Virus record (IMG/VR): IMGVR_UViG_3300042923_000161
Coordinates: 1 to 50,883 of that record
Length of the DNA: 50,883 nt
Origin: a virus
Taxonomy: Duplodnaviria > Caudoviricetes
Strand: one strand, 5' to 3'
The notes beneath the pieces were generated by a model. That model was not told where the DNA came from. It searched no databases and saw only the letters and a program-made list of their open reading frames with translations. Within the stretch, counting starts at the first letter, position 1. Each line of letters starts with the position of its first letter. The position numbers and the translations under genes were made by a program. Positions 11,190 to 45,189 of this stretch are shown here, piece by piece.

Positions 11190-12431
11190 ATGTTTATCCT
11201 ATCAGCCGCAGGTGCTGCAATGATTGCTACTTCAGCGATTGGGCTTCACCGTAACATGCCAAACAACCACTTGAAGATTATTGTCCGCAAGTATCTGGAA
11301 GCCAACAAATTGGACGGTGTCCGGGTGACACGGGTCCACCGCAGAAGTACTCACGTCTACAGCATGGAATTGTTGCTGCCTTACAACATGACAGCCGACA
11401 AGATCCAAGACCACGTGCCCGGATTCGAACAGGTCACCAGTTCACACGTTCACTTTGTGTACTCAGGCGGCCCACGTTGCCGTCTGGACTTCGGTTTCAG
11501 TCAGTTCAAGGCTAACATGCCCTTCAACCGTTTGGAGCCGCTACAGCCCCTCAGAGTCCCGCTGTACTCACCGTTCGGTGTTCGGTATATCGACTTCACT
11601 GAGGAAACCAGTTGTCATATGCTGCTTGGCGGTGCAACCCGGATGGGTAAAACAGCATTGTTGCGCTTGATAGCTACCTTGCTTGTAGTCGGCACAGACG
11701 GGAAAATCGTCCTCAAGTTAATAGACAACAAAGTCAATGATGTATACATGTTCCAGAATATCCCACAAGTGGACATTGCTGAAACACAAGATGAAGCCCT
11801 TGACATCCTGATGGAAGCCATTCGTGAATCTGTCATGCGGAAGAACCTGCTGAAGCAGCATAATGACTGCATTGACATGAAGGAGTTCAGACAGAAGCAT
11901 CCCGGTGAAGCTTCAGCATTCCCGCCGTACTTTGTGGTAATTGATGAGTATGGACGCTTTGCAGATAACCCGGACATTCAGAAGTGTGTAGAGCAGTTGG
12001 TCGAAACCGCTGGATACGTGGATATGCATATGATCATTGCCAGCCAGCGTCCAGACGCACAGACAGTGCTGAAAGCACGGATCAAGGCGAATCTGACCAC
12101 CCGTGTATGCTTCACAACAACTGATGAAGCCAATAGCAAGGTTGTACTTGACATTCCAGACGCTTCCCGCCTTGGGAAGATACAAGGCCGGGCCGTATTG
12201 ATGGACGGTTTCCCTGAAGTGGTGCAGGTTCCATTCCTCAGCACCTTGGACGCAAAGGATATGCTTAAATCATACGTTAAGGAGCGTGAGTCAAATGACT
12301 CCAAGAGACGGGATGTTGTTGAAAGTTTTGAACCACTTCAGGGTTTTGAACCGCTGTCAGGTGGAGAAGATGATCTTCCCAAACCTAAAAAGCGCAACAC
12401 AAACGGCAAATCGCGTCCTAAAAAGGCTTGA
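11190..12431 (+). CDS. FtsK/SpoIIIE-family ATPase
   Basis: N-terminal hydrophobic anchor, Walker A GGATRMGKT, Walker B VVIDE, ASQRPDA and GRA motifs. Confidence 0.9.
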   Translation: MFILSAAGAAMIATSAIGLHRNMPNNHLKIIVRKYLEANKLDGVRVTRVHRRSTHVYSMELLLPYNMTADKIQDHVPGFEQVTSSHVHFVYSGGPRCRLDFGFSQFKANMPFNRLEPLQPLRVPLYSPFGVRYIDFTEETSCHMLLGGATRMGKTALLRLIATLLVVGTDGKIVLKLIDNKVNDVYMFQNIPQVDIAETQDEALDILMEAIRESVMRKNLLKQHNDCIDMKEFRQKHPGEASAFPPYFVVIDEYGRFADNPDIQKCVEQLVETAGYVDMHMIIASQRPDAQTVLKARIKANLTTRVCFTTTDEANSKVVLDIPDASRLGKIQGRAVLMDGFPEVVQVPFLSTLDAKDMLKSYVKERESNDSKRRDVVESFEPLQGFEPLSGGEDDLPKPKKRNTNGKSRPKKA

Positions 12432-19716: not shown

Positions 19717-20601
19717 TCATCCAGAAGTTTTTTGATCTGCTCCTGAATCGGATGGCTTGGATTCATCTGGTTTCACCTTCTCCGGTATAGTTGTAGATCC
19801 CAACTGACGGAAGATGTCGCCCCATTTAGGCCACCAGATCAGTTCAGGGAACTTCATTCGATCACGGGCAGGCATACGTGCGCCAGCTTTGTATGTCACT
19901 GTCCCTTCTTGCAGGTTATCTGTGTGGATACCGTAGTGCATCATTTCAGGCTTGTCCTTCGCAGGACGCATTTTGTGCTTGACCATATAGAAGACACCGT
20001 CCGTTGCTCCCATTACGCCGGGGGCAGCGTGTTTGCCTTGCAGACGAAGCTGGATGACTTTCTTGAAGTCGGTTGATTCTTTGGCTTCCATGTCATGCCC
20101 GATCCACAGAACGTTAACACCGTGGCTTCTGGTGAGTCTCTGCCAGTCTCTGAACTCTTTCACCTCAATGCGCTGAAGATCATCCCAGTCGGTTTGTGCC
20201 CCGAAACGTCCCTTGATTTCACGCGCTCTGGTTGGTGCAAATTCCGCAGACACCACGTAATCCTTCACTGACTCTTCCAGTGTTGTGAATGAGTCCACAG
20301 CGTATAGATCGTACTTCAATTCAATACGGCCTACACCGGGCAGGATTACGAACCCTTGGGGGATACCTTCACGCACCTTTTGAAGTTCAGCCAGTGAACT
20401 AATGCCCAAGATATCAACATTACCCACACTGTCCAGTACACCGCTGTTCTTATCCAAGTCCAGCAGTAGCACCCGGATAGTCGGATCATACTGAAGTGTT
20501 GATGTCTTTCCGCTGAAAGGTGGTCCGTACAGGAGTGCAGAACGCCCCTCCTTTGGTTTCTCTGCAAGCGGGATTCCACCCGGTCTGAATGTAATTGCCA
20601 T
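19717..20601 (-). CDS. AAA_24 / Sak4-like ATPase (recombinase)
   Basis: LLYGPPFSGKTS, LDLD, AVDSFT and WIGH; lies between the nuclease and SSB. Confidence 0.8.
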   Translation of the reverse strand: MAITFRPGGIPLAEKPKEGRSALLYGPPFSGKTSTLQYDPTIRVLLLDLDKNSGVLDSVGNVDILGISSLAELQKVREGIPQGFVILPGVGRIELKYDLYAVDSFTTLEESVKDYVVSAEFAPTRAREIKGRFGAQTDWDDLQRIEVKEFRDWQRLTRSHGVNVLWIGHDMEAKESTDFKKVIQLRLQGKHAAPGVMGATDGVFYMVKHKMRPAKDKPEMMHYGIHTDNLQEGTVTYKAGARMPARDRMKFPELIWWPKWGDIFRQLGSTTIPEKVKPDESKPSDSGADQKTSG

Positions 20602-29405: not shown

Positions 29406-29470
29406 GCCAACCCCTACCCCTTGCGGGGTGGACGCTCTGAGCCTAATGGCCTTGATCCCGCTCAGACGGG
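29406..29470 (-). ncRNA. Pistol ribozyme
   Basis: P1 CCCG/CGGG with loop UCUGAG; P2 GCCA/UGGC; UUAGG; pseudoknot partner CUCAGA; GCG; P3 capped by GCAA; G^U junction. Confidence 0.85.
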
Positions 29471-30169
29471 TTATCTATCTTCTTTCTTCAGGAACGGATT
29501 CTGCCAGATGTTCGCTTGGTACGTTGTGATTGCTGCTTCTCTATGTAGCTGATCTTTGAAGTCGTTCCAAGCTTGGCGCAGCATCGGTTTATCTTGTTTC
29601 TTTCCTTGTGTCCCAAGTTCCGGGTATACCTGTCTAAACAACCTTGTCGCCTGTGATTTATTCAACTTGTCAACCTCCCATTTTGGTCTGAGCCGTTTAT
29701 ACACATGCTCCACAGCATCTGCAATTTGTGAAGCCATGTCATACACCAGTGACAGCCGTGTATTCTGAAGCACGAAGTATTCCATGAAGCCGCCCACATT
29801 GACAATTGCCTTAATGTGTGCATCACCTACGGCTGGAAGAGTCTTGCCCACACCTGCGCCGGGCTTCAACGGCCCAATCTCACATATCGCTTTACCTACA
29901 CTAGATGACTGACCAAGACAAGCATCAATTGCCAGTGTGTAGCGCTTTGGCAATGTGTTCAAGATACCCTCTTCCATACTCACCGCATGGACTGGCTTGT
30001 GCAGTGTTCCATACACATTCCTAATCCCTCTTTGCTGAAGCATAAGCCCAACCATCGGGCCTAAGCTGTCTCCCGTGCTGCGATCTGTGCCGATACATAC
30101 GATGTTCATTTCAGATATGTGACGTGGGACGATTGCATCCAGTTCTTTAGTCAGTGACATGTCAGTCAA
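29471..30169 (-). CDS. yyaC: YyaC-family spore protease with a C-terminal extra domain
   Basis: CIGTDRSTGDSLGPMVG, YGTL..PVHA, AIDACLG, PGAGVGK.LPAVGD and LQNTRLSLV. Confidence 0.92.
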   Translation of the reverse strand: MTDMSLTKELDAIVPRHISEMNIVCIGTDRSTGDSLGPMVGLMLQQRGIRNVYGTLHKPVHAVSMEEGILNTLPKRYTLAIDACLGQSSSVGKAICEIGPLKPGAGVGKTLPAVGDAHIKAIVNVGGFMEYFVLQNTRLSLVYDMASQIADAVEHVYKRLRPKWEVDKLNKSQATRLFRQVYPELGTQGKKQDKPMLRQAWNDFKDQLHREAAITTYQANIWQNPFLKKEDR

Positions 30170-32369: not shown

Positions 32370-32398
32370 AATATAACACGAACCGTGCATGTCTGCAA
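32370..32398 (-). promoter_or_regulatory. Sigma-A promoter
   Basis: TTGCAG-N17-(TG)TATATT. Confidence 0.65.
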
Positions 32399-32399
32399 C

Positions 32400-33000
32400 C
32401 GTTACTTTGCGAATGTTTCAGGTTAACGGGTTCAAAGCTGACATGACTGTAAAAACTGGATACTGATGGCAATTTCTGCAACACTAATAGTGTTTCATGT
32501 TGCTGTAGGGTGTAACTTGTTTCCGAATTCATGTAAGCCAAGCGGGAATCCTGTAACATTTGGCGTGTTCACGTGTGTTGTTACGTTGTGGTGCTTTGTA
32601 AAATTAATAATGTTGCATTGAAAGTTGGAACGACTTATTACGGAAAAGATGAAAATTGGAAATTAGTTTCGGTTAAGCCAATCACCAAATCGCGGATGGC
32701 TCTCTCTAAAACCATAATGCATTGAAAACGAAAACCGTTATTTTCATTACTTTCATAGTGTTTTCATTGAATTTAGGTCTGTAGACCCCTTGTTTTCATG
32801 AAATGAGTTGATCCTTTCATTTCGTTTGCAATGAATTAGCTTTTTCAAAATTTGAAAATGAAAATCGGAAAATCGCTTACCTGTACCAAACTAACCGTTG
32901 TAACATAACTTAACCTAATAATAACCAATACTAATAATAATATACATAATAATAATAATAATAATAATAATAATCTTGATAATGTTCTATATAATGCTTT
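32400..33000. other. Putative replication origin (non-coding, iterated motifs, AT-rich tract)
   Basis: No credible ORF; many TGAAA/TTTCA and TGTAAC/TGTTGCA/TGTTTCA motifs; (TAA)9 tract. Confidence 0.5.
32947..32973. repeat. (TAA)9 microsatellite
   Basis: Read directly from the sequence. Confidence 0.9.
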
Positions 33001-33021
33001 AGTGACTTACAGTATGAAGCG

Positions 33022-33057
33022 AAAAAGAAGGGATTTTGTGATTCAAATCCCCTCTTT
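33022..33057 (-). terminator. Rho-independent terminator
   Basis: AAAGAGGGGATTT-loop-AAATCCCTTCTTTTT on the minus strand. Confidence 0.75.
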
Positions 33058-33069
33058 GCATTATTTGCA

Positions 33070-33399
33070 CTATTCTTCTTCGACCCACATACGCGCCGCT
33101 GCTTTGAGTAGGCACACGCCATCAGCCAAGCTTGTGGATGTGATGCCGATGTATGACAAGTGCTGTCTAGCTGCACCCGTTCTGCTGTCCCAATACTTCA
33201 ATGGGATGCTGTTCAAGTGCTCATCCGCAGCCAGTGCTGCTGTCATTGCATCTTTGCTTGCTGGCATGAGCGGTACAAGGTTGTGCAGCCCGATGTCATT
33301 GACCAGTGTTTCGTACTTCTCTTTATGCGTTATGTCCGTACCGTCAGCCTTGCGACCATATCCGTCCAAGTTCAGGTATTGCGCGATTGTTTTTCCCAT
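33070..33399 (-). CDS. Hypothetical early protein
   Basis: GGAGG RBS; DEHLNSIPLKYWD...SLADGVCLLKAAAR. Confidence 0.75.
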   Translation of the reverse strand: MGKTIAQYLNLDGYGRKADGTDITHKEKYETLVNDIGLHNLVPLMPASKDAMTAALAADEHLNSIPLKYWDSRTGAARQHLSYIGITSTSLADGVCLLKAAARMWVEEE

Positions 33400-33563
33400 T
33401 AGTTGTTACCTCCAGTGTATTTGAGTTTGGATGTCTTGAACGACTTAGTGTACTTGCCTGTGAACATTGGCTCATGTTCCTTCATTACCTTGCGATCCAC
33501 GCTGATGATCATTGCAGCAGCTATTGCGCCAAGCAGCACGATGATTCCGATGTTAATTAACAT
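33399..33563 (-). CDS. Small single-TM protein (54 aa), first early ORF
   Basis: AGGAGG RBS; MLINIGIIVLLGAIAAAMIISVDRK... Confidence 0.65.
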   Translation of the reverse strand: MLINIGIIVLLGAIAAAMIISVDRKVMKEHEPMFTGKYTKSFKTSKLKYTGGNN

Positions 33564-33587
33564 TGTTTATTCCTCCTATTAGGTTAT

Positions 33588-33833
33588 GTACTGGGCTTGA
33601 AGCCCATTCCAACCGCTGATGCTTCAGCAGATCGAATGGAATTCAAATCCGTTAGCCCCAACGCGCCCTCTGTACCAGATGCCTAATCCGGTAACCTCAT
33701 GTAGCGCGTCACGCTTACCATCTGATAACGGGGTTTGGTCATGTCCCGGCTGATATCTACTCCAGCTTATTGATGTCTTGCACGTTTACAGTAATGTTGC
33801 TGTGGGATTCACGCTTCACCCACGTTCCAGTAC
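33588..33833 (-). ncRNA. Candidate ~250-nt structured RNA (class not recognised)
   Basis: ORF-free leader closed by GUACUGG/CCAGUAC, with several internal helices and a possible pseudoknot. Confidence 0.6.
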
Positions 33834-33864
33834 GTTGTTTCTGCGTTCCTTACTTGATGTACTT

Positions 33865-33894
33865 AGTATAGCACATCCGGCTTACCTGTGTCAA
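33865..33894 (-). promoter_or_regulatory. Early sigma-A promoter (proximal copy)
   Basis: TTGACA-N18-TATACT with extended -10 TG. Confidence 0.8.
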
Positions 33895-33949
33895 CACTTT
33901 GTTTGAAACATTTTTGTGTGTGTTTCGTGTTGCTCTTGTTTCTATAACT

Positions 33950-33979
33950 AATATAGCACATGGCGCTTATGTGTGTCAA
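33950..33979 (-). promoter_or_regulatory. Early sigma-A promoter (distal copy)
   Basis: TTGACA-N18-TATATT; near-duplicate of the proximal copy (AAAGTGTTGACACA...TAAGC...ATGTGCTATA). Confidence 0.8.
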
Positions 33980-34014
33980 CACTTTTGTTTCATCAATAAT
34001 AGGATATCCCATAA

Positions 34015-34300
34015 GGCATGTATGTATGCATGTGTGCAGTGCGTGCGCGCGTTAGTGTGGTGGTGTGTGGCAGCGTGTAGACAGGGCACAGGCAGGGGGT
34101 GGGGTGGTGCCGCGTCAACGCGTCAGTGCGGTGCAGCATGGGTGTAGGGACAAGAATCGGTGTGCTGCGGTTACGTGCGGGTCAGGGCGGGGCGGGGAAG
34201 TTCTGGCAAACACACCCCCGTGTACCCCTGAAAAAGTTAGACCAGTAACATCCACTCTGTTCCACCCAAGCCCCCAACAACCCAGAATAAATTCCCAAAT
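34015..34300. other. Putative packaging / genome-end region
   Basis: Non-coding region between the divergent promoters; G-rich up to ~34200, then C/A-rich. Confidence 0.45.
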
Positions 34301-34305
34301 AATCG

Positions 34306-34335
34306 TGGACAACCCCTCCATGTACATGCTATACT
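34306..34335 (+). promoter_or_regulatory. Rightward promoter
   Basis: TGGACA-N18-TATACT with extended -10 (ACATGCTATACT). Confidence 0.7.
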
Positions 34336-34373
34336 ATGTTTAATAAGACGTACATCAATAAAGGAGGTGCCGA

Positions 34374-44265: not shown

Positions 44266-45189
44266 ATGCCAAACGGACAAGCTGTATCACGCGATAATTA
44301 CGGCAAGTTAATGGAACCGGGCTTGCGTAAAATCTTCATGGACAACCTGACTTACACTCCATGGCAGTTTACGCAAATCTTTAATGTCAACAAGTCCACA
44401 AAAGCAATTGAGACTGACCTTCGTATGGGGGATTTCGGTCTGTGGGTTGAAAAAGGTACATTGGATAACACCATGTATGAAGACCCAGTTGGTACCGACC
44501 TCGTTCAGTATCGTCACAGAACATTCTCCAAAGGTTTCACAGTGGAGAAAGAGTCCATTGACGATGACCAGTACGGGAAAATCAAAAAGTTCGCCAAGAA
44601 ATTGGGTGTACGTGCTAACCAGACAGTTGACATTGATGCTACAGGGCTGCTAAATCGTGCGTGGACTCCAGATGCTAACGCCTATAAAGGTGAAGCATTG
44701 ATTGGTAACCACACACGTTTGGATGGTGGTACTCGTACCAACTCCCTCGGCGCTTTGGCACTGAATGAACCTAACTTGGAGATTGCACACAAGCTGGCAG
44801 CAGAGCAAACGGATGAGAACGGATTCTTGGTTCGTATGAACCCTGATACACTCGTTATCCCACGTGCGCTTGAAATGACAGCCCGTAAAATCTTCGGTTC
44901 GGTTTACATGCCAGATGCTGGTACAGACGGCAACACTTACGCGAAGAACGATATCAACCCGTTCAAATCGCGCTATAAAATCGTGGTGCTTGACTACCTG
45001 ACAGACCCGAATGCGTGGTTCTTGATGGACAGCAAGCTGCATGAGTTGAACTTCTTCTGGCGTGAAAAGCCAAACTTCAAGAACACTCAGGACTTTGACT
45101 CTGATATCGCCAAGTTCAAAGGCCGTATGCGTTATTCCTACGGTTGGACAAGCGACATCGGTATCTTGGGATCGAAGCCAACGCCTTAA
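44266..45189 (+). CDS. Major capsid protein (Mu gpT-like, HK97 fold)
   Basis: L.EPGLRKIF, F..GF.V..E.IDDD.Y, P..LVIP..LE, LTD..AWFL and R.RYS.GW. Confidence 0.9.
   Translation: MPNGQAVSRDNYGKLMEPGLRKIFMDNLTYTPWQFTQIFNVNKSTKAIETDLRMGDFGLWVEKGTLDNTMYEDPVGTDLVQYRHRTFSKGFTVEKESIDDDQYGKIKKFAKKLGVRANQTVDIDATGLLNRAWTPDANAYKGEALIGNHTRLDGGTRTNSLGALALNEPNLEIAHKLAAEQTDENGFLVRMNPDTLVIPRALEMTARKIFGSVYMPDAGTDGNTYAKNDINPFKSRYKIVVLDYLTDPNAWFLMDSKLHELNFFWREKPNFKNTQDFDSDIAKFKGRMRYSYGWTSDIGILGSKPTP

Follow-up and report, generated by a model that had tools for sequence, protein, structure and literature searches.

The stretch of about 280 nt which separates the proximal early promoter from the first ribosome-binding site (RBS) in the leftward arm of this phage is, judging from comparison with its relatives, a genuine and previously unclassified structured RNA, forming the 5' leader of an immediate-early transcription unit. 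It is read from the minus strand of the window, as we call the whole DNA analysed, a complete virus record of 50,883 bp with direct terminal repeats. The initial annotation had proposed that the early transcript begins with a structured RNA not recognised as any known kind, and this reading is upheld by the absence of Rfam matches, by a fold better than that of shuffled sequences and by compensatory changes in one helix. As to its role, we favour, with slightly less than even confidence, a cis-acting, specifically recognised RNA which sets the stability or the translation of the immediate-early cargo.

Genes for a large terminase, a Mu-gpT-like capsid protein and the tail lie in the rightward arm of the phage, and the leftward arm carries genes for an SNF2 helicase, a primase-helicase and DNA polymerase A, along with many small genes. 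A DUF1256/YyaC-like gene (29471-30169, minus strand; match at E 1.8e-49) has its closest relatives in Bacillales genomes, mostly of Paenibacillus or Paenibacillaceae, with 43-61% identity among the best 80 of 552 loci. With about 35% identity, the terminase and the DNA polymerase come closest to those of API480 and SV21, two podophages of Paenibacillus larvae. Taken together, these relationships point to a spore-forming member of the Bacillales as host, probably one of the Paenibacillaceae. An FtsK/SpoIIIE-like gene is also present (11190-12431, plus strand), and its combination with the sporulation-associated YyaC-like gene suggests an interplay with host sporulation. Directly downstream of the latter gene lies a Pistol self-cleaving ribozyme (29406-29471, minus strand), scoring 42.1 bits against a gathering score of 34.5. 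Two ribozymes had initially been counted in this arm; Pistol is the only one found by Rfam at E<=1 between 9500 and 34400, where nothing else matched.

The features of the immediate-early unit are listed in Table 1. RNA positions (i) are obtained from window coordinates (c) as i = 33866 - c, and are thus counted from the base after the -10 hexamer of promoter P2. The two early promoters, both near-consensus and of sigma-A type, are 37-nt direct repeats, 85 nt apart, and transcription would start near 33858, as predicted from promoter P2. No ORF of at least 30 aa is found on the minus strand between a 49-aa ORF ending at 33863 and the first gene (33399-33563), and the ORF-free interval described initially between proximal promoter and first RBS is thus confirmed. 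The product of the 109-aa gene corresponds to phrog_25437, of unknown function.

Table 1. Features of the immediate-early unit and elements of the leader RNA, predicted from sequence. Positions are window coordinates, with RNA numbering (i) in brackets.
Feature	Position	Strand	Description
Distal early promoter P1	33950-33979	-	TTGACA, 18 nt, TATATT, TG extension; 11/12 matches
Proximal early promoter P2	33865-33894	-	TTGACA, 18 nt, TATACT, TG extension; 11/12 matches
ORF-free 5' leader RNA, ~280 nt	33578-33858	-	no ORF; no Rfam, tRNA or tmRNA match; fold compared with shuffles
Stem P1 (closing), 5' strand	33827-33833 (i33-39)	-	GUACUGG; pair probabilities 0.90-0.98; no covariation
Variable 5' region	33771-33826 (i40-95)	-	includes GUGGG/CCCAC hairpin 33802-33823
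Hairpin P2	33749-33766 (i100-117)	-	GCUGG, 8-nt loop, UCAGC
Ultra-conserved core	33634-33747 (i119-232)	-	113/114 letters identical to L010
Helix H_A, 4 bp + 15-nt loop	33717-33739	-	ACCA 33739-33736 with UGGU 33720-33717
Predicted long helix P4	33654-33715 (i151-212)	-	MFE and two-sequence consensus prediction
Long bulged 3' hairpin P5	33594-33650 (i216-272)	-	predicted in window and L010
Stem P1 (closing), 3' strand	33588-33594 (i272-278)	-	CCAGUAC
Ribosome-binding site and first-gene ATG	33561-33577	-	AGGAGG 33576-33571, ATG 33563; end of conserved cassette
Variable cargo	33070-33563	-	54-aa membrane peptide gene 33399-33563 and 109-aa gene 33070-33399
Intrinsic terminator ending the unit	33021-33058	-	strong hairpin and U-run, read from sequence

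Relatives of the leader were found in metagenomes. Searching the JGI metagenomes with a degenerate loop pattern returned four stretches, one of which is a true homologue, the 2,007-nt contig L010; the other three were set aside as chance matches, being read by eye as coding sequence (K-P-R-Y-Q codons). In L010 a C-rich upstream stretch, two promoters, the leader and the same RBS are followed by a differing cargo, made of a different first gene, a homologue of the membrane peptide and another unrelated gene, and then by a terminator, a conserved 30-nt sequence and (ATT)n repeats. The hexamers of promoter P2 are kept, and an equivalent of promoter P1 is present. Around the terminator (33020-33069) 35 of 50 columns are identical, and in L010 as well a hairpin precedes a T-run. 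The leader is also covered, at 83-97% identity, by contigs of all four metagenome runs examined, and promoter P2 by a goat-gut metagenome contig (X11), identical in 147 of 151 letters. Twenty further runs with small word shares do not enter the evidence on habitat and range.

In the metagenome contigs X2, X3 and X4 the genes flanking the leader are skipped or replaced, and in these, as in L010, the cargo genes are replaced or rearranged. In X2 the RBS is separated from the membrane peptide gene by a 402-nt insert placed exactly between the two; L010 has an extra gene there. Since the same promoters, leader and RBS stand next to replaced flanking genes in the relatives, the conserved unit is best described as a portable cassette of these three elements with interchangeable cargo.

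Further features were noted around the cassette. A cargo hotspot is apparent at 33565-33569 (600-992 in L010), where X2 and L010 hold an extra gene of about 400 nt between RBS and membrane peptide gene, and the position of the 109-aa gene is occupied by unrelated sequence in X2, X4 and L010. Between the divergent early promoters an ORF-free stretch of about 300 nt (33990-34300) shows an extreme strand asymmetry, the minus strand being C/A-rich with C runs and the plus strand G/T-rich. This stretch would be outside the reach of both flanking promoters, is kept in X2 and is 62% identical in L010; it is possibly a regulatory or structural DNA element. Downstream of the terminator, a non-coding region of 650 nt (32370-33020; 1480-1900 in L010) contains, in this order, a 30-nt sequence 91% identical to L010, (ATT)n repeats and several ATGAAAA-type repeats, and may represent an origin of replication or an array of regulator-binding sites. 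The motif ACAGGTAAGC (minus strand) lies in the spacer of promoter P2 (33880-33894), recurs after the ATT repeats (32875-32889) and is found near position 1615 of L010. Another motif, AAAATGTTTCA, precedes promoter P2 in the window and both early promoters of L010, a different sequence being present upstream of promoter P1 of the window. Both motifs may be operator sites.

Conservation along the leader is very uneven. Apart from the core (Table 1), identity to L010 is 56-63% in the promoter region, 60% in the unpaired 5' tail, 33% at i40-95 (19 of 57 alignment columns), where a hairpin is deleted in L010, 65% in the small hairpin at i96-118, 75% at the tip of the long 3' hairpin and 96% at i257-281. 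The small variable patches correspond to the tips of predicted stem-loops, set in invariant sequence, which argues for selection on a folded RNA and not for one recent recombination block. The pattern does not reflect a small protein-coding gene. In the only small minus-strand ORF, of 19 codons, all six changes in helix H_A alter the amino acid, and a plus-strand ORF of 44 aa has lost its ATG in L010 and contains length-changing indels in X3.

The ability of the leader to fold was evaluated against shuffled sequences. The sense strand has a minimum folding energy (MFE) of -90.1 kcal/mol (z -3.17), equalled by 1 of 200 shuffles; for the antisense strand z is -1.91, with 9 of 200 shuffles as good, and for the L010 leader it is -2.70. 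Folding is stronger on the transcribed strand. An energy no better than that of shuffled sequence, which the initial annotation had named as evidence against a structured RNA, was thus not observed.

The architecture was predicted from two full leader sequences, those of the window and L010, and the overall fold is under-determined because of this small number; variation in X2, X3 and X4 was read from 40 of 151 differences listed. A two-sequence consensus with H_A enforced is composed of a stem (i33-38/i273-278), the hairpin at i100-117, H_A, a helix at i151-212 and the hairpin at i216-272. Covariation, proposed initially as a check, is present as compensatory changes in H_A, whereas RNAalifold on the window and L010 finds none of 61 pairs changed on both sides, because the two sequences are nearly identical in the core. 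For the helices other than H_A these two sequences offer no informative variation, and the architecture beyond H_A remains a model.

Several elements of this model coincide with pairings that had been read by eye. In the closing stem six of seven pairs are kept in L010, the altered one being the innermost; the 5'-terminal GUAC, which takes part in a rival pairing in the MFE structure of the 281-nt sequence, is absent from L010, which favours GUACUGG/CCAGUAC. In hairpin P2 all five pairs are kept in L010, one of them changing from G-U to G-C, and the loop is changed. Hairpin P5, predicted with 21 pairs and small internal loops directly upstream of the RBS, agrees with the long bulged hairpin drawn initially; its tip differs in L010 by six changes, including two in the loop, one C-G to U-G, one U.U to G-C and one U-G to U.U. 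About 25-32 nt are left unpaired as a 5' tail, and this speaks against the RNA simply shielding its 5' end.

Other pairings fared less well. In the variable 5' region, where the changes of X2, X3 and X4 cluster at 33777-33785 (among the 40 of 151 differences listed), the GUGGG/CCCAC hairpin is deleted in L010 and hence dispensable. In X2, changes in one strand, with the partner positions unaltered among the differences listed, disrupt both CAGAUG/CAUCUG and GGUAA/UUACC, which also compete with H_A. GACGCGC/GCGCGUU, suggested as a pseudoknot, is an ordinary nested helix in the MFE structure; its 3' strand is changed at five of seven positions in X3 and at one in an X4 contig, its 5' strand having no listed change. 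CCGUUA/UAACGG shows no informative variation, a 1-nt deletion in X3 falling inside it. In the same contig the tip of helix P4 (i166-206) is replaced through 21 substitutions and two deletions (among the 40 of 151 differences listed), and an X4 contig of depth 2.99 holds one disruptive one-sided change; the predicted helix P4 is thus not supported by the sequences of either contig. Of the secondary structure as drawn, the closing stem, the GCUGG hairpin and the 3' hairpin stand, while several pairings are contradicted and the best-supported helix, H_A, had been missed.

H_A pairs i127-130 with i146-149 and closes the loop AACCCCGUUAUCAGA (33735-33721). Four haplotypes were observed: ACCA/UGGU in the window and L010, AUCA/UGAU in one X4 contig, AUCG/CGAU in the other, and GUCG/CGAC in X2 and X3. 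They differ by three fully compensatory pair changes (six positions), and all are Watson-Crick; the 15-nt loop shows no change among the 40 of 151 differences listed. When random substitutions were simulated, at least three compensatory pairs in one helix were obtained in 0 of 200,000 trials with 13 substitutions and in 0.12% of 50,000 trials with 43. H_A is nonetheless missing from the MFE and RNAalifold structures, its ensemble probability is about zero and its forced formation costs 10 kcal/mol. That the helix covaries although it is thermodynamically unfavourable suggests that its loop probably makes a tertiary or pseudoknot contact or binds a factor. A search for partners of the loop within the leader gave, as best duplex in the window, i36-47 (-12.3 kcal/mol), a segment altered in L010 (-7.1). 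The candidates i253-264, i207-218 and i111-122 were rejected as weak or as competing with predicted helices, and no conserved, conflict-free partner was found among the candidate duplexes in the leader.

The same data bear on whether selection acts on RNA at all. It is very improbable, in our view, that the sequence is conserved at the DNA level, as an array of operators, as part of an origin or as a linker for recombination at the cargo hotspot, with H_A as a symmetric protein site. H_A, being an inverted repeat, could bind a dimeric protein, and since all its haplotypes are Watson-Crick a DNA palindrome fits equally well; moreover, the entire intergenic block 33406-34359 is conserved in X2, untranscribed parts included, and its borders are exactly where cargo has been exchanged. 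The core, however, is 99% identical where promoters and upstream sequence reach 56-63%, folding is biased to the transcribed strand, hairpin P2 exchanges a G-U for a G-C pair in L010 and the variable patches sit at the tips of predicted stem-loops. The strand bias, the G-U to G-C change and the contrast between 99% and about 60% make a purely DNA-level reading the least likely.

Invariant unpaired nucleotides beside a covarying stem, with variable peripheral stem-loops, are a pattern typical of ribozymes and aptamers, and the phage already carries Pistol. That the leader is a new self-cleaving ribozyme or riboswitch aptamer, with the conserved core as catalytic or ligand pocket, is nevertheless distinctly unlikely: the core exceeds most small self-cleaving ribozymes in size, a cleavage site or ligand is not identifiable from the sequence, and a riboswitch would here be devoid of an expression platform, with neither a U-tract after the 3' hairpin nor a CCUCC-type anti-RBS in the leader. 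The RBS is unpaired in both the MFE and the constrained folds, and no alternative structure hiding it was recognised by eye. A broader proposal, to which we would give limited credence, is that a new functional RNA class, carried by phages of spore-forming Bacillales, begins with this leader, which would be a compact sensor or machine with a pseudoknot, gating immediate-early expression. It would operate either as a self-cleaving ribozyme, as an RNA-only modifier of the polymerase or as a riboswitch responding to a host-state signal, and interchangeable host-takeover or anti-defence genes would all share it as their universal front end.

The leader was compared with known RNA families and sequence collections. 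Rfam 15, at gathering scores over the window, gives nothing in the leader, the sole match being Pistol. Relaxing the threshold to E<=10 for 33300-34300 adds only a chance snoRNA match outside the leader, and the six matches obtained for L010 at E<=10 all fall outside its RNA region (336-590). ARAGORN reports no tRNA or tmRNA gene over the window, and the RNA is as unrecognised as first described. A tRNA-like element was considered and rejected: the hairpin beside the closing stem, inspected by eye, is not compatible with a T-loop, and the first base of its loop differs in L010.

In GenBank phages, blastn under 'distant' settings with 33400-34100 as query produced no match, and the core as query only chance matches of 19-38 nt in 16 records (E<=10). 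Exact patterns for a 24-mer of the leader, for the H_A loop in degenerate form and for the conserved sequence after the terminator had no match in IMG/VR, while a gapped promoter pattern returned 44 stretches, none of which was a relative by BLAST. Protein searches of IMG/VR gave three loci for the terminase (58-59% identity), in contigs of 4.9-7.2 kb ending short of the leader region, none for the primase-helicase and two for the 109-aa protein (32-33% identity), in much larger phages. In GTDB genomes a 26-nt pattern had no match; BLAST of the leader found it in 0 of 136 genomes, all from one family of Paenibacillus relatives, and three GTDB genomes searched singly had nothing beyond exact matches of 10-19 nt in common with it. 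Judged by the Rfam test and the searches of GenBank phages, IMG/VR, JGI metagenomes and GTDB, the leader qualifies as a new RNA family, and a narrow one, so far made of the window, L010 and the contigs of four metagenome runs. In titles and the openings of abstracts we found no description of this leader RNA, which does not prove that it is unpublished, and the public sequencing runs listed for this region include no RNA run.

Under the cis-acting reading that we favour, the closing stem would gather the variable 5' region, the small hairpin, H_A with its invariant loop, a further helix and the long 3' hairpin. The folded core would act in cis as a specific recognition platform on its own transcript; through it, a protein, a small ligand or the transcription or translation machinery would determine how stable the message of the gene behind the RBS is or how it is translated. 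The sequences themselves show the conservation, one covarying helix, the strand bias of folding and the absence from known families; the transcript ends, the action in cis and the nature of the partner are what we infer. Action in cis is favoured by the absence of a U-tract terminator or recognisable processing signal between RNA and RBS, and by conservation of the RBS together with the RNA while the gene behind it varies.

These two observations also weigh against a stable non-coding RNA acting in trans as decoy, sponge or anti-defence element, freed by a host RNase, e.g. RNase III at the long 3' hairpin: such an RNA would have to leave a transcript with neither terminator nor recognised processing signal before the RBS, the RBS itself belongs to the conserved module, and no partner or target was identified. 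Action in trans is improbable on balance, although it would suit the two tandem promoters with 11 of 12 matches, the closing stem, through which the two ends of the RNA meet as they do in many stable RNAs, the hairpin of about 20 pairs just before the RBS and a variable cargo typical of early host-takeover genes.

To our knowledge, few structured leaders from the start of phage infection have been characterised except in lambda, HK022 and T7, and phages of Gram-positive spore-formers have provided hardly any. The leader described here is much more constrained than the surrounding promoters and proteins, and resembles a plug-in front end for variable early genes. Should its fold turn out to be that of a sensor, antiterminator or ribozyme, it would reveal how the first transcripts of such phages are timed or protected, and would constitute a compact, portable expression element for Bacillales. 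Read cautiously, it still makes a clean candidate for a new RNA family, and its helix H_A lends itself to direct testing.

Among known systems, HK022 put and the Bacillus EAR are RNA elements acting in processive antitermination; put, from a lambdoid phage of E. coli, is about 70 nt long and has two stem-loops. Like putL and putR, the leader is a non-coding RNA just downstream of early promoters and upstream of a terminator (promoters 33865-33979, RNA, terminator 33021-33058, the order being the same in L010), and no co-conserved phage protein is adjacent. Unlike put, it is about 280 nt long, multi-branched and from a Bacillales phage. We consider it rather unlikely that the leader is an RNA-only processive antiterminator, in which the nascent RNA would modify its own polymerase and let transcripts from promoters P1 and P2 pass the terminator into the 650-nt non-coding region and the delayed-early genes. 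The succession of promoter, RNA, small genes, strong terminator and same-direction genes in the window and L010, the location of the RNA within 300 nt of the transcript start and the highly conserved unpaired bases, which fit recognition by a conserved host machine, are in its favour. The downstream leftward units, however, have promoter-like sites of their own (32400 region, 24752, 22618), which makes read-through unnecessary; the arm has no excess of terminator-like sites (15 against a shuffle mean of 16.0), the region has no Rfam match at E<=10, and the leader is three to four times the size of put.

The early leader of T7, with the RNase III site R0.3, and the early-RNA processing sites of Bacillus phage SP82 share with our unit tandem strong early promoters, a long untranslated leader and a long hairpin directly before the first RBS. 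An RNase III-type duplex of about 20 bp or more before the first RBS would be provided by the 21 predicted pairs of hairpin P5. We know of no near-invariant cores above 100 nt or multi-helix junctions in the T7 and SP82 early leaders. Riboswitch aptamers and ribosomal-protein leaders of Bacillales resemble the leader in their 5' position, closing stem, covarying stem with invariant loop and variable hairpins; unlike them, it has no Rfam match at E<=10, no terminator/antiterminator pair and no RBS-sequestering platform. The genes downstream of it vary, so that gene context gives no clue to a ligand.

The structured RNA with paired ends recalls the pRNA of phi29, also linked to an early promoter in a Bacillales phage, but the leader does not match it in Rfam, and a packaging RNA is not expected, since this phage packages its DNA with a classical large terminase. 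API480 and SV21 share the genome plan and also the layout of the first early unit, where a promoter, a leader of about 220 nt, one small gene, a terminator, AT-rich repeats and the next promoter follow each other. In that leader (44677-44900, minus strand, in API480; 20300-20530 in SV21) a hairpin is followed by UUUUCUGUU, resembling a terminator or attenuator within the leader. With 95% identity between the two phages there, no covariation can be read. Unlike the leader described here, theirs is unrelated in sequence and does not fold significantly (z -0.28, with 76 of 200 shuffles folding as well); it was accordingly rejected as a homologue and is analogous in position only.
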